In this document: positions 3,219 through 8,530 of the stretch, piece by piece
How the letters are laid out: each line of letters starts with the position of its first letter
Position numbering within the stretch: position 1 is the first letter of the stretch
NCBI GenBank assembly: GCA_051313645.2
Contig: JBNRSN020000354.1
Coordinates: 310,001-374,000 of the forward strand
Length of the DNA: 64,000 nt
Direction: 5' to 3'
DNA from: Centroscyllium fabricii
Taxonomy: Eukaryota
Translations under genes and position numbers: made by a program
Notes under the pieces: generated by a model
Databases searched by the model: none
What the model was told of the DNA's origin: nothing
What the model saw: the letters and a program-made list of their open reading frames with translations, nothing else

Positions 3219-3889
3219 CTCTGCAAGAGCACCTCAGCTAGTACCACTCCCCTGCCCTTTAAATATTTTTCCTTCAGGTACTTATCCAGTTCCCTTTTGA
3301 AAGCTGTGATTGAATCTGCCTCCACCACCCTCTCAGGCCGTGTATTCCAGATCATAACCACTCGCTGAGTAAAAAAGTTTTTCTTATGTCGCCTTTGGTT
3401 CTTTTGCCAATCACCTTCAATCTGTGTCCTCTGGTTCTTGACCCTTTTGCCAATGGGAACAGTTTCTCTATCTACTCTGTCCAGACCCCTCATGATTTTG
3501 AACACCTCTCTCAAATCTCCTCTCAATCTTCTCTGCTCCAAGGAGAACAACCCCAGCTTCTTCAGTCTATCTGAATTCCCTCATTCCTGGAATCATTCTC
3601 ATAAATCTTTTCTGCACCCTCTCTAAGGCCTTCACATCCTTCCTAAAGTGTATTACCCAAAATTGAACACAATACTCCAGTCGAGGCTGAACCAGTGTTT
3701 TATGAAGGTTCATCATAACTTCCTTGCTTTTGTTCTCTCTGCCTCTATTCATGAAGCCCAGGATCCCGTAAGCTTTTTTAACCGCTTTCTCAACCTGCCC
3801 TGCCACCTTCAACGATTTGTGCGCATATACCCCCAGGTCTCCCTGTTCCTGCACCCACTTTAGGATCGTACCTTTTAGTTTATATTGCC
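3219..3889 (-). mobile_element. CR1 LINE fragment (continues at 8418-8530), host of the Gypsy insertion
   Basis: Minus-strand ORFs 2963-3550 and 3567-3854 give CR1 ORF2 motifs (LEYCVQFW, RRLRGDL, FFTQRVV). The sequence resumes after the Gypsy TSD. Confidence 0.88.
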
Positions 3890-4108
3890 TGTGATAATAC
3901 AGAACAGCTTCTATCTGCTTACATCACTTCCGGGGACCTATGAACTTTTGTATGATGTCACTTCCTGTAACTAGCCCAGTATAAATACTGGGCTACTCAC
4001 TATGATTTAGTAAGAGGCATAGTGAAGACCTCTTTTGTATGTAGCACCTTTATAAGTTGATTAAAGCTTACCTTAAGTTCCTATCGTGTAAGTTTCATTC
4101 TTACAACA
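3890..4108 (+). repeat. 5' LTR of Gypsy element 1
   Basis: TGTGATAATAC...TTACAACA. Contains ETS-like ACTTCC motifs, TATAAA inside the hairpin TAGCCCAGTAT/ATACTGGGCTA, and ATTAAA. Confidence 0.95.
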
Positions 4109-4191
4109 ATTTAATCAACTTTGCAAAACCTCTCACTCAACTCGAACTTTTGGACAAAACTCGGAGCTGAGGATCCAGGGAAGCCACCAGC

Positions 4192-7100
4192 ATGGAGAAC
4201 CTCCTTAGACCGACTCGTCTCGATTTGGACCCAAACACCTCAGCAGCTGATAAAGTCTGGAAACACTGGTATCACGCTTTTGAAAATTTTCTTGTATATT
4301 GTGAAGCTGATGATGACATGAAGCTCAAGTTACTAATCAACTATGTCACCCCAAGGGTATATGAATGTGTGGATCATTGGACTAATTTTGATGAGGCAAT
4401 TCGGACACTTCAGAGACTATATACTAAGACACCTAATGAGGTCTATGCTAGACATCTACTAGCTACAGCCCGACAAGGGCCAGAGGTATCAATTGATAAA
4501 TTCCTTCATGAGCTTCGCAGGCTTAGCATGAATTGTAACTTTCAGGCGGCTTCAGCTGAGCTGTACCGTGAAGAAATGATTCGTGATGCCTTCATCTGCG
4601 GGCTTGCCTCCCCATTTATTCGCCAGCGTCTACTCGAAAGTAAGACACTGGAACTACAAAAAGCTTATGACTTGGCTTGTTCTCTGGATTTGGCAAAAAG
4701 AAATGCAGACCTTTATGAAGTACCTAGACCTCGAACTGCTGCTTTAACCACAACCAGACAATTTAAGCGGCCACAGGTGAACTCTATTAGGGAGGACTGT
4801 TATCCTGATGATCAATCTGAGGACTTCACTGATGAAGAAGATAATGACCCCACTCTGGCAGCCTCTTGGCGATCTAAGAAATGCTTCTTTTGTGGTGATG
4901 AGTTTCATCCTAGGAAATTCTGCCCTGCTCGCAATGCGATTTGCAGTCATTGTGACAAAAAGGGTCATTTTGCGAAGGTTTGCTTATCACGAGCCTCTAC
5001 GAGGGCTTATCAAGCTCAGTCCTATCGAACTGCCCCAATTAGGGCCTATCAAAATATTCCGGCTAAATCTTATCATGCTTCCTCTCGGGGTTTTTCCCGA
5101 AGAAGCACACCGAGAGTTTCTGCCACTCTTTGTGCAACAACATCAATTACAGCTGCTTGTCCTCCAAATCTATTCTATGCTGCTGTGAAGGCATCAATTG
5201 CTGGACATACTTTAGATGCCTTAATTGACTCTGGCAGCTCTGATAGTTTTATTAGGGAACAAGTTGTTACAAAGTTAAAGCTACATGTTTTCCCATCCAA
5301 CCAGGCAATTGCGATGGCTCAGTCGTCGCTCAACACCAGAACCTCCGGCTTTTGTATTGTTGAAATATCACTTAATGGCCACAGGTATCCCTCTACCCGG
5401 CTTTCGGTGCTCAAGGACCTGTGTAGTGACCTTCTCTTAGGGCTGGACTTCCAAAAGCCGCATAAGACGCTCACTATTGAGTTCGGCGGATCCAAACCCG
5501 GACTCACTGTTTCTAATATCCTGCCTCAATTACCGTTCTGTGCGTTGTCAGCGGCTTCGCTGGATGAACCCTCACTATTTACCAGTATTCCTCCTCGATG
5601 CAAGCCAATTATAACAAAATCACGACGTTTCACTCAGGAAGACCAGTCCTTTATTGCGACTGAAATTTCTCGGCTTTTGGCAGAGGATATCATCGAGCCT
5701 TGTTCATCGCCATGGCGGGCCCAAGTTGTTATTGTTAAAAATCCTCTGCAGCCTCACAAGAAACGGCTGTGCATTGACTATTCACAGACCATCAATCAAT
5801 ATACGGACTTGGACGCCTACCCATTGCCGCGCATAGATGATATGGTTAATAAATTGGCTGAGTACACGGTGTTCTCAACATATGATCTGAAAAGCGCCTA
5901 TCATCAAGTACCTTTGAAAGTCTCAGACAAGCAGTATACGGCCTTTGAGGCCAATGGACGGCTGTACCAGTTCCGTCGCCTCCCGTTTGGGGTCACTAAT
6001 GGAGTGGCTGTCTTCCAGCGGGCAATGGATGACTTCGTCAAGCAGGAAAACTTAAAGGATACTTTTCCTTATCTAGATAATATTACTGTTGCAGGTCGTG
6101 ATCAACAGGAACACGACGCCAATCTCCAACGATTTCAGGATGCACTCCAGCACCGTAATTTAACATTGAATGCGTCTAAATCTATTGAGTCACAACCAAC
6201 CATCAACATCCTTGGCTATTGTGTGGGCAATGGCATAATTAAACCGGACCCTGAAAGGCTTCGTCCGCTCCAAGAGCTCCCGCCACCTAAGAATCCAGCC
6301 TCCTTGCGTCGGGCCCTCGGCCTCTTTGCGTATTATGCTAAATGGATTCCAAACTTCTCGGACAGAATCCAACCCCTACTGAAGGCCGGAACATTTCCAT
6401 TAGACACAGCGGCTGTTACAGCCTTTAATCTTCTAAAACAACTGTTGGAGAAAGCGGCCCTTCACTCTATTGATGAGAATCTGCCCTTCGTCGTTGAATG
6501 TGATGCCTCAGAAGTGGCGATCTCGGCTACTCTGAATCAGGAAGGTCGTCCGGTGGCATTTTTATCCAGGACCTTTCAAGGTGCCGAAATACATTATCCT
6601 CCAGTGGAGAAAGAAGCTACAGCCATTATCGAGGCAGTACGGAAATGGAACCATTTCCTAGCTCGGCAACACTTTACGTTAATAACAGACCAGCGATCGG
6701 TCGCTTTTATGCTTGATAATCGGAAACGAACCAAAATTAAAAATAATAAGATCCAGCTTTGGCGGATGGAGTTGGCCTCTTTCGGTTACACCATCCACTA
6801 CCGACCTGGCAAGGACAATGTGGCCCCGGATACCCTCACACGAGCATTCTGCTCCGCCGTGTCACCCTCTACTCTCGTGGACGTCCATGATGGATTGTGT
6901 CATCCTGGCGTTACCCGCATGTTACACTTCGTGCGATCACGGAATCTCCCTTTTTCTACCGGGGATGTCAAGAAGATGTGCTCGGACTGCAGAGTCTGTG
7001 CAGAATTAAAGCCTCAGTTTTTCCGCCCCTCGGGTGGTACGCTCATACATGCGACCCAGCCGATGCAACGGCTTAGCATTGATTTTAAGGGCCCGTTGCC

Positions 7101-8175
7101 CTCTTCAACTCGAAACACTTATTTACTGACCATGGTCGACGAATATTCCCGTTTTCCGTTTGCCTTTCCCTGCCCCAATATGCTGTCATCCACCGTTATC
7201 AGCTGCCTTGAACAGGTATTTTCTTTCTGTGGCATGCCGTCTTACGTTCACTCGGATCGGGGTCCTTCCTTCATGTCAGGAGAACTCAAGGCTTATCTCT
7301 CGGATCGGGGCGTTGCTACCAGTAAAACGACGCCTTATCATCCTGTCGGGAATGGGCAAATCGAACGGTATAATGGCATCATTTGGAATTCTGTACGTCT
7401 AGCTTTGAAATCTCGGGGCTTGCCCATCCAGCAATGGGAAGCAGTACTCCCAGACGCATTGCATTCTACACGGTCCCTTCTTTCGACCGCCACAAATATG
7501 ACTCCCCATGAACGATTCTTTCAATTCCAGCGTCGCTCATCCTCCGGGATCTCTCTTCCATCGTGGCTGACTACACCAGGACCGGTGTTACTCCGGAGAC
7601 ATGTCCGGGCATCCAAGAATGACCCCCTTGTAGATGAGGTGGAACTGACTGATATCAACCCGACCTATGCATATATCCGATATCCTGACGGTCGGGAATC
7701 CACTGTGTCGTTACGGGATCTGGCTCCCTGCCCGCCGAAACTTACTGGGACACCTGGGGATGGTGATTTGCCAGGCGCATCTCTGTGCTCGCCAGGTACC
7801 CCTCACCAGGATCTGGATCTGACGCCGGCTGGCACTTCACTCCAGGATACAAACCGGAGGCAGACCGACTATGAGCCCATTGGGGCTCGCACACGCAGCC
7901 ACGATCCACCACGTTCTACACGCCCAGAAACGAATCTACCACAGACCTACTCAACACCCGTTCGGGCTCAAACGCAAAGCCATGCTCTCCCAGACCCTTC
8001 ACAGGGCGGGCCAGACCACACGGATTCTGATCAATGGCCCACGGCACGTAAACGGGCTAGAGACCCTCTATCACCATGTGAACCCAAACGGGTGCGACTC
8101 TCCCTCATTCGACGGATACGTAATGAAGGGAGGATTCCGGCCTCCTACTCTTTTGGGAGGGAGGCGGCCTCCTAA
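4192..8175 (+). CDS. Gag-Pol polyprotein (Gag with two zinc knuckles, protease, RT, RNase H, integrase), 1327 aa
   Basis: CFFCGDEFH...C and CSHCDKKGHFAKVC knuckles, LIDSGS protease, RT (DLKSAYHQ, LPFG, YLDN), RNase H (CDAS, EKE, TDQ) and integrase (HHCC, IDF, HSDRG, IER), in Gypsy order. Confidence 0.96.
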   Translation: MENLLRPTRLDLDPNTSAADKVWKHWYHAFENFLVYCEADDDMKLKLLINYVTPRVYECVDHWTNFDEAIRTLQRLYTKTPNEVYARHLLATARQGPEVSIDKFLHELRRLSMNCNFQAASAELYREEMIRDAFICGLASPFIRQRLLESKTLELQKAYDLACSLDLAKRNADLYEVPRPRTAALTTTRQFKRPQVNSIREDCYPDDQSEDFTDEEDNDPTLAASWRSKKCFFCGDEFHPRKFCPARNAICSHCDKKGHFAKVCLSRASTRAYQAQSYRTAPIRAYQNIPAKSYHASSRGFSRRSTPRVSATLCATTSITAACPPNLFYAAVKASIAGHTLDALIDSGSSDSFIREQVVTKLKLHVFPSNQAIAMAQSSLNTRTSGFCIVEISLNGHRYPSTRLSVLKDLCSDLLLGLDFQKPHKTLTIEFGGSKPGLTVSNILPQLPFCALSAASLDEPSLFTSIPPRCKPIITKSRRFTQEDQSFIATEISRLLAEDIIEPCSSPWRAQVVIVKNPLQPHKKRLCIDYSQTINQYTDLDAYPLPRIDDMVNKLAEYTVFSTYDLKSAYHQVPLKVSDKQYTAFEANGRLYQFRRLPFGVTNGVAVFQRAMDDFVKQENLKDTFPYLDNITVAGRDQQEHDANLQRFQDALQHRNLTLNASKSIESQPTINILGYCVGNGIIKPDPERLRPLQELPPPKNPASLRRALGLFAYYAKWIPNFSDRIQPLLKAGTFPLDTAAVTAFNLLKQLLEKAALHSIDENLPFVVECDASEVAISATLNQEGRPVAFLSRTFQGAEIHYPPVEKEATAIIEAVRKWNHFLARQHFTLITDQRSVAFMLDNRKRTKIKNNKIQLWRMELASFGYTIHYRPGKDNVAPDTLTRAFCSAVSPSTLVDVHDGLCHPGVTRMLHFVRSRNLPFSTGDVKKMCSDCRVCAELKPQFFRPSGGTLIHATQPMQRLSIDFKGPLPSSTRNTYLLTMVDEYSRFPFAFPCPNMLSSTVISCLEQVFSFCGMPSYVHSDRGPSFMSGELKAYLSDRGVATSKTTPYHPVGNGQIERYNGIIWNSVRLALKSRGLPIQQWEAVLPDALHSTRSLLSTATNMTPHERFFQFQRRSSSGISLPSWLTTPGPVLLRRHVRASKNDPLVDEVELTDINPTYAYIRYPDGRESTVSLRDLAPCPPKLTGTPGDGDLPGASLCSPGTPHQDLDLTPAGTSLQDTNRRQTDYEPIGARTRSHDPPRSTRPETNLPQTYSTPVRAQTQSHALPDPSQGGPDHTDSDQWPTARKRARDPLSPCEPKRVRLSLIRRIRNEGRIPASYSFGREAAS

Positions 8176-8193
8176 TCTTTTGGGAGGGAAGAA

Positions 8194-8412
8194 TGTGATA
8201 ATACAGAACAGCTTCTATCTGCTTACATCACTTCCGGGGACCTATGAACTTTTGTATGATGTCACTTCCTGTAACTAGCCCAGTATAAATACTGGGCTAC
8301 TCACTATGATTTAGTAAGAGGCATAGTGAAGACCTCTTTTGTATGTAGCACCTTTATAAGTTGATTAAAGCTTACCTTAAGTTCCTATCGTGTAAGTTTC
8401 ATTCTTACAACA
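8194..8412 (+). repeat. 3' LTR of Gypsy element 1
   Basis: Identical by eye to 3890-4108. Confidence 0.95.
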
Positions 8413-8530
8413 TTGCCTCTCCTCATTCTTTCTACCAAATGTATCACTTTGCATTTTTCTGCATAAAATTTCATCTGCCACGTGTCCGCCCTTTGCACCA
8501 GCCTGTCTATGTCCTTTTGAAGTCTATCAC

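Follow-up and report, generated by a model that had tools for sequence, protein, structure and literature searches.

A putative self-primer at the poly(A) signal in a Ty3/Gypsy retrotransposon clade without chromodomain

Self-priming of reverse transcription is already known to be proven in the fission-yeast element Tf1 and predicted for chromovirus relatives and a few plant lineages. In Tf1, pairing involves bases 1-11 and the RNase H cut falls between bases 11 and 12 (PMC7175516, PMC4600332), and Tf1-type elements are characterized by a chromodomain, a primer located at the 5′ end of the RNA, and a three-duplex pretzel (bioRxiv 10.1101/2022.12.06.519325). Tf1/Tf2 of Schizosaccharomyces pombe, Tj1, Tosmo1-3, and Tcry1 have no tRNA primer binding site (PBS) and carry after the LTR a sequence complementary to an LTR segment, a feature that they share with the elements reported here. 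Self-priming was also predicted from LTR–PBS complementarity in the plant chromovirus Tcn1 and in the Ty1/Copia elements TAR/Houba/Osr-1 (PMC6317226), which implies that it occurs outside one clade; these predictions concern plant hosts and lineages other than ours, and the accessible text of that paper makes no mention of an overlap with the poly(A) signal. For Dictyostelium Skipper, another form of self-priming has been proposed.

Retroviruses also resemble the elements studied here in that identical signals stand at both ends of the genome, a situation solved partly by RNA structure: the accessible part of PMC3694450 attributes the suppression of 5′ LTR polyadenylation to the R-region hairpin in HIV-1 and to U1 snRNP together with structure in foamy virus. 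They differ in their tRNA priming and in their reliance on U1, whereas in our elements masking would fall to the PBS, which is present at the 5′ end only. Mag-type Gypsy clades, compared here by description only, are alike in their short LTRs, conserved AATAAA, and absence of a fixed TATA, as given for Mag A in the available text of PMC3601003. In the portion of the literature that is openly accessible (including PMC13524379, PMC2774666, PMC5006619, PMC3587641, PMC10680173, PMC5443660, and PMC8556966, in part), we found no self-priming in an animal non-chromovirus clade, although subscription papers, Repbase, or other supplements may describe the clade; a full-text search of accessible papers returned no primer overlapping a poly(A) signal, no published clade name was found in the literature covered, and the motifs of the clade had no match in the supplement files searched.

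Here, we analyzed a window of 64,000 nt, that is, the whole stretch of Centroscyllium fabricii DNA under study, in which lies an intact Ty3/Gypsy element with a single ORF and LTRs of 219 nt that are 100% identical to each other. Its features, in window coordinates, are the following:

3885..3889, + strand: left copy of the 5-bp target-site duplication (right copy at 8413-8417)
3890..4108, + strand: 5′ LTR, 219 nt, TG...CA, identical in sequence to the 3′ LTR
3980..3987, + strand: predicted TATA box, a motif also present in two other families of the same genome
4009, + strand: predicted transcription start, an Inr-like A inferred from spacing calibrated on sushi-type control elements
4054..4065, + strand: LTR arm of the helix, the predicted self-primer, with ATTAAA as its 3′ end
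4066..4093, + strand: likely second stem, in which 4066-4071 can pair with 4088-4093
4109, + strand: single unpaired base (A) between LTR end and PBS
4110..4121, + strand: PBS position, exact complement of 4054-4065, without a tRNA-type TGG
4192..8175, + strand: single intact ORF of 1,327 aa with Gag, protease, RT (YLDN), RNase H, and integrase
8182..8193, + strand: polypurine tract, abutting the 3′ LTR
8194..8412, + strand: 3′ LTR, in which the same arm is present and the partner strand absent

The TG...CA LTRs, the target-site duplication, the polypurine tract, and the Gypsy order PR-RT-RH-IN of the Pfam domains (protease, RT, RNase H, and integrase) are those of a Ty3/Gypsy LTR retrotransposon, and the best solved-structure match of the protein is the RT of Ty3 (E 3e-48). 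Two CCHC-type knuckles can be read from the Gag sequence, the 1,327-aa protein has no Pfam match to a chromodomain, and no envelope ORF is found in the element. The double CCHC knuckle is a trait of Mag elements, which are tRNA-primed. Within the host genome of 7.2 Gb, both arms of the helix occur exactly at 1,695 places, and the window family is young, since all 150 scored Gag matches are 99-100% identical. The RT motif (window 5632-6200) reads YLDN and not YxDD in this intact, high-copy family; most RT rows of the clade are YLDN too, and some are YLDD. As for the surroundings, the element sits inside an older repeat of the opposite strand (inverted repeats I2 and I14, in the flanks of 3885-3889), contig loose ends at 3890 run on into this older repeat, and the right half of the window (30949-64000) is taken up by a 27-nt tandem array of ~1,200 copies that has 82% matches and is strongly GC-skewed.

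The first-pass annotation of this locus had proposed that the place of a tRNA PBS is taken by a segment pairing with the poly(A)-signal region of the element's own LTR, and the sequence bears this out: 4110-4121 is the exact reverse complement of 4054-4065, an arm that contains ATTAAA at its 3′ end, and no TGG directly follows the 5′ LTR, the first one lying 43 nt past its end. It was also right that the helix can form only at the 5′ LTR, because the partner strand is outside the LTR, and the TATA that it had placed ~70 nt upstream of the arm starts at 3980, 74 nt before it. A perfect match of at least 12 nt was obtained in 4 of 20,000 dinucleotide shuffles of the window LTR, and the fold of 4054-4121 has a z of -4.58, with none of 200 shuffles as stable. 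Both arms are kept in 29 of the 30 other copies examined.

Beyond the window family, a homologue search yielded at least 120 listed proteins with 47-64% identity, and the named sources among the proteins listed comprise crustaceans, a tunicate, cnidarians, a nematode, and a fluke; for the DNA of relatives, 66 metagenome loci and older families in the host's own genome were used. When the region upstream of gag was scanned, without anchoring, for its longest perfect inverted repeat, an LTR/PBS helix of at least 10 nt was retrieved in 51 of 71 elements, a de-duplicated set that includes decayed copies and in which two other inverted repeats were left uncounted. With relatives grouped into 26 clusters (one duplicate merged, the largest cluster split in two), each reduced to one representative hand-picked after the helices had been seen, in 22 of the 26, complementarity to the own LTR begins 1 nt past the CA and is perfect over 10 nt or more (mean 12.5), as compared with 30 of 650 cross-family pairs (mean 5.3). 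The four misses resemble decayed copies, and in L069 the 3′ LTR restores a match of 16 nt. Perfect arms are 10-18 nt long in the clade, and the register of one base after CA holds wherever both LTRs are in view (11/26 representatives, in which the second LTR fixes the LTR ends independently) as well as in 9/9 sushi-type controls. The start of the PBS is conserved, its first five bases being T-rich in all 26 families; in 15/26, the motif used to locate the LTR end already assumes the first T's.

In none of these 26 families does a TGG occur less than 18 nt past the LTR, and a control family of the same genome (L202/L207/L208) has its TGG within 5 nt of the LTR; together with L210, these controls represent a high-copy Gypsy family with a 1,964-aa ORF, LTRs of ~630-670 nt, and a TGG-type PBS. 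Moreover, at least seven different PBS sequences are found in the host's own genome, each matching its own LTR, a diversity that a single host RNA cannot explain. The window scan found no tRNA genes, the viral sequence collection no relative, and the Rfam search no match.

The pairing itself turned out to be conserved among relatives, as the covariation analysis recovered two-sided changes among members of the clade. We aligned 21 chosen copies, the weak rows L153 and L145 included: 267 of the 273 cells of 13 core pairs are standard pairs, and 10 of these 13 pairs have changed on both sides and none shows a one-sided change; when the partner is shifted by 1-3 columns, pairing falls from 89% to 27-48%. 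Among 25 representatives (L060 being left out as mis-anchored), pairs 1-13 comprise 313 Watson-Crick and 0 G·U pairs out of 325 cells, the anchoring of arms on Watson-Crick matches lowering the G·U count, and the neighboring second stem has G·U in 21 of 102 cells. Positions 14-17 are paired in 50 of 100 cells versus 36% expected (p 0.003), and pairing beyond them is at chance level (49/200); it tails off over positions 14-17 rather than stopping at a fixed length. Such two-sided changes across the clade argue against a fixed host primer and point to Tf1-like self-priming, and the strictly Watson-Crick pairing would be explained if the primer were copied into the PBS during plus-strand synthesis. 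On this evidence, the existence and conservation of a self-priming signature are well supported.

At the level of individual copies, compensation was not demonstrated in the window family or in the family B copies examined. The pair 4059/4116 shows three LTR-only and four PBS-only single changes and no double change, and one of the eight family B copies with an LTR change is compensated (L145, the 3′ LTR of which was not found); the apparent double change of L153 is probably CpG decay on both sides. In all eight uncompensated copies with a visible 3′ LTR (three from the window family and five from a sister family, two further copies having no 3′ LTR in view), the change is confined to the 5′ LTR and thus arose after insertion. 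Two common polymorphisms of the window family, at 4081 and 4086 and of high frequency among the 100 rows listed, fall in the loop of the second stem.

This second stem, 3′ of the arm, is moderately supported: a stem starting from the first base after the arm has a mean of 4.1 bp versus 2.9 bp by chance, and the first loop bases are predicted to be paired with a probability >0.5 in 21/25 families. For the window, the minimum-energy fold prefers a shorter alternative to the 4066-4071/4088-4093 stem. The duplexes that flank the PBS in the Tf1 pretzel were not detected, their signal lying above shuffles in only 10/25 and 11/25 families. Some own-genome families have a GTRAGT past the arm; we discarded the idea that it is a U1 site, because it is present in both LTRs, is absent from other families, and could form the second stem's 3′ side. 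We likewise did not retain the conserved AG of the arm as a splice acceptor, CAG never occurring.

From a comparative perspective, the same genome also harbors elements that we label "sushi-type" from their features (L169, L171, L172, L174, L178, L203, L205, L206, and L211), with chromodomain and SH3 shown for L203. They share with the clade a self-complementary PBS and a one-base spacer after CA, but differ by an arm of 11 nt, a loop of 122-223 nt, and the absence of a hexamer in the arm, and their RT is ~26-32% identical to that of the clade. Elements of the clade (L173, L175, L209, L212, and L183) are often nested in or beside sushi-type or same-clade elements. Neither Chromo nor SH3_Tf2-1 has a match in the window protein or in 9/9 homologues, and the positive control L203 matches both. 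In an RT tree of 63 rows, composed of 48 clade rows and 15 others with no named Tf1 or sushi sequence among them, the branch that splits the two sets measures 1.07 changes per site with a support of 100/100, a grouping that is partly circular since an identity to the window of at least 45% was the criterion for clade rows. Between the clade and 11 sushi-type rows come, with modest support, a tRNA-type family and three further rows, and a topology in which clade and sushi-type rows are forced together is not rejected (AU p 0.26).

Overall, the clade probably works like Tf1, but its chromodomain status, RT position, and lack of a pretzel signal place it outside the Tf1/sushi group. Unlike the Tf1 group, it has no chromodomain match in 10/10 proteins, two CCHC knuckles, and a YLDN-type RT; its arm of 10-18 nt ends mostly in a poly(A) hexamer, its loop spans 23-60 nt, it gives no pretzel signal, and its primer is probably internal. 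An independent origin of self-priming in the clade is no more than plausible.

The location of the primer within the transcript deserves attention in this regard. Among the clade families of the host's own genome, a TATA-like box lies 70-94 nt upstream of the arm in 7/10, with two more recognized by eye at 67-68 nt, and an Inr-like A is found at TATA +29 to +31 in 5/9, the window included: its A at 4009 lies 29 nt past the first T of the TATA box and 45 nt before the paired arm. In the sushi-type controls of the same genome, the arm, of 11 nt in 9/9, comes exactly 30 nt after the TATA box in 7/9, which is the geometry of Tf1 and calibrates promoter spacing in this host. The first-pass annotation had held that the paired segment is apparently not at the transcript 5′ end as in Tf1, and the TATA/Inr spacing supports this indirectly for the own-genome families; in the 15 metagenome families scanned, no consistent TATA position was found and the primer may therefore be 5′-terminal. 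The balance of promoter spacings leans toward an internal primer in the families of this genome. A fixed 11-nt primer at an AG initiator was also considered and is weakened by arms of 13-18 nt and by the upstream TATA boxes. As side observations, the TATA box at 3980 lies within the loop of a 10-bp inverted repeat (3970-3995) that in the 3′ LTR could fold as an RNA hairpin, and a longer predicted leader tends to go with a longer PBS-to-ATG spacer across families.

With regard to polyadenylation, ATTAAA at 4060-4065 is the only canonical hexamer of the window LTR. The 3′ end of an AATAAA or ATTAAA coincides with the final base of the arm, or with the one before it, in 21/26 families, 20 of which have no other canonical hexamer between arm and LTR end, and the distance from arm end to LTR end is 23-60 nt in the 26 families. 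ATTAAA, a weaker form of the poly(A) hexamer, accounts for 11 of these 21. The mean predicted probability that the hexamer is unpaired is 0.08 in the presence of the PBS versus 0.55 in the LTR alone. The suggestion that one helix does both jobs, priming and poly(A) suppression, thus receives support from a hexamer predicted to be buried at the 5′ LTR, but it does not hold throughout: the post-LTR pattern is kept without a canonical hexamer in the arm in 5/26 families, in two of which (L034 and L035) the hexamer is in the loop. Since the helix persists in families without an arm hexamer, priming would be the role common to all, to which masking is frequently added. That the helix masks the poly(A) signal at the 5′ end, with the 3′ copy remaining mostly accessible, is about as likely as not. 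No polyadenylated LTR retrocopy was found in the genome, a blank that is uninformative either way.

Taken together, these data make it very likely that reverse transcription has LTR arm sequence as its self-primer, in a Tf1-like manner. The fuller explanation that we favor, a non-chromodomain Ty3/Gypsy element primed by its own LTR stretch through an internal primer, appears reasonably probable as a whole. Transcription would start near 4009, and the arm would fold co-transcriptionally onto the PBS over a loop of 44 nt; RT/RNase H would then cut after the last A of the arm, beside the short second stem, and the new 3′-OH would be extended through one spacer base and U5. The primer would, by a modest preference, retain a capped leader of ~45 nt. 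The sole homology available for the first strand transfer would be the ~15-25 nt from the hexamer to the poly(A) site, the poly(A) signal would be hidden by the helix at the 5′ end and stay mostly accessible in the 3′ copy, and plus-strand synthesis would copy the primer into the PBS. In this scheme, the long 5′ leader carried by the primer constitutes an unsolved problem at the plus-strand transfer, which counts against it.

Several alternatives need to be weighed against this internal self-primer. The classical geometry of Tf1, in which the packaged RNA would begin at the helix from a second, TATA-less start near 4054 and its first 11-13 nt would serve as primer, the upstream TATA driving another transcript or being unused for the genome, strikes us as unlikely, even though it has several points in its favor: pairing is strongest over positions 1-13, an initiator-like AG stands at arm positions 11-10 in 22/26 families, alternative start sites are used by Tf2 according to the accessible part of PMC5341516, and the metagenome families have no consistent upstream TATA, L035 having a one-mismatch match at 29 nt. 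It is at odds with the absence of a TATA near -30 of the arm in the window and with the TATA and Inr of own-genome families located 38-65 nt further upstream; perfect arms of 10-18 nt also depart from the sushi-type stop at 11 in 9/9, and pairing between the predicted leader and the sequence that follows the PBS is possible in 2/9 families (p 0.002 in family B, L100, and p 0.034). The same primer sequence could otherwise act in trans, the arm being supplied by the 3′ LTR of the genomic RNA, by solo-LTR transcripts, or by early-terminated short transcripts. The arm is identical in both LTRs, so that covariation cannot tell the copies apart, and predictions make it more accessible when the LTR has no PBS beside it; however, a cis partner is available 23-60 nt away in 26/26 families, with a central cis pair predicted at a probability near 1.0 in 23/25, and should occupy the PBS first, making a trans source rather improbable.

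It is more improbable still that the helix regulates only polyadenylation or packaging, in the manner of the HIV-1 poly(A) hairpin, with priming taking place elsewhere by an unknown RNA or protein. Such a role would agree with the arm hexamer of 21/26 families, for which burial is predicted in the 5′ context alone, but masking needs neither a one-base register, nor the exclusion of G·U, nor a helix in families lacking the hexamer, and no TGG is seen within 17 nt of the LTR end in 26/26 families. As for a host tRNA or tRNA fragment priming at 4109-4126, the match to the LTR being secondary, it could account for the conservation of the PBS start in the clade (first five bases T-rich, 26/26) and is nonetheless hardly credible given the lack of TGG, the at least seven own-genome PBSs each complementary to their own LTR, and the scarcity of cross-family matches of at least 10 nt (30/650).

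Beyond the window, the self-priming signature, with strong covariation, now extends to a large non-chromodomain clade with members in crustaceans, a tunicate, cnidarians, a nematode, and a fluke, and includes a family of ~1,700 near-identical copies in one genome; it provides an annotation rule for elements now listed without a PBS. The novel part is the putative internal primer that overlaps the poly(A) signal. If the favored explanation is true in both these respects, a single structure would link the choice of the 3′ end to the initiation of reverse transcription, and one could test how often tRNA priming was lost and how short a repeat supports strand transfer. More tentatively, a widespread animal Gypsy clade may have independently dropped tRNA priming, its PBS having become complementary to the poly(A) signal of the same element, so that a helix silences the 5′ site and one cut yields a capped internal primer with a repeat of ~20 nt, which would amount to a second self-priming architecture, distinct from that of Tf1. 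Some members of the clade are compact: the LTR of L054 measures ~80 nt (L054:99-178), and in L031 only 23 nt separate the hexamer from the LTR end (junction near 3260).
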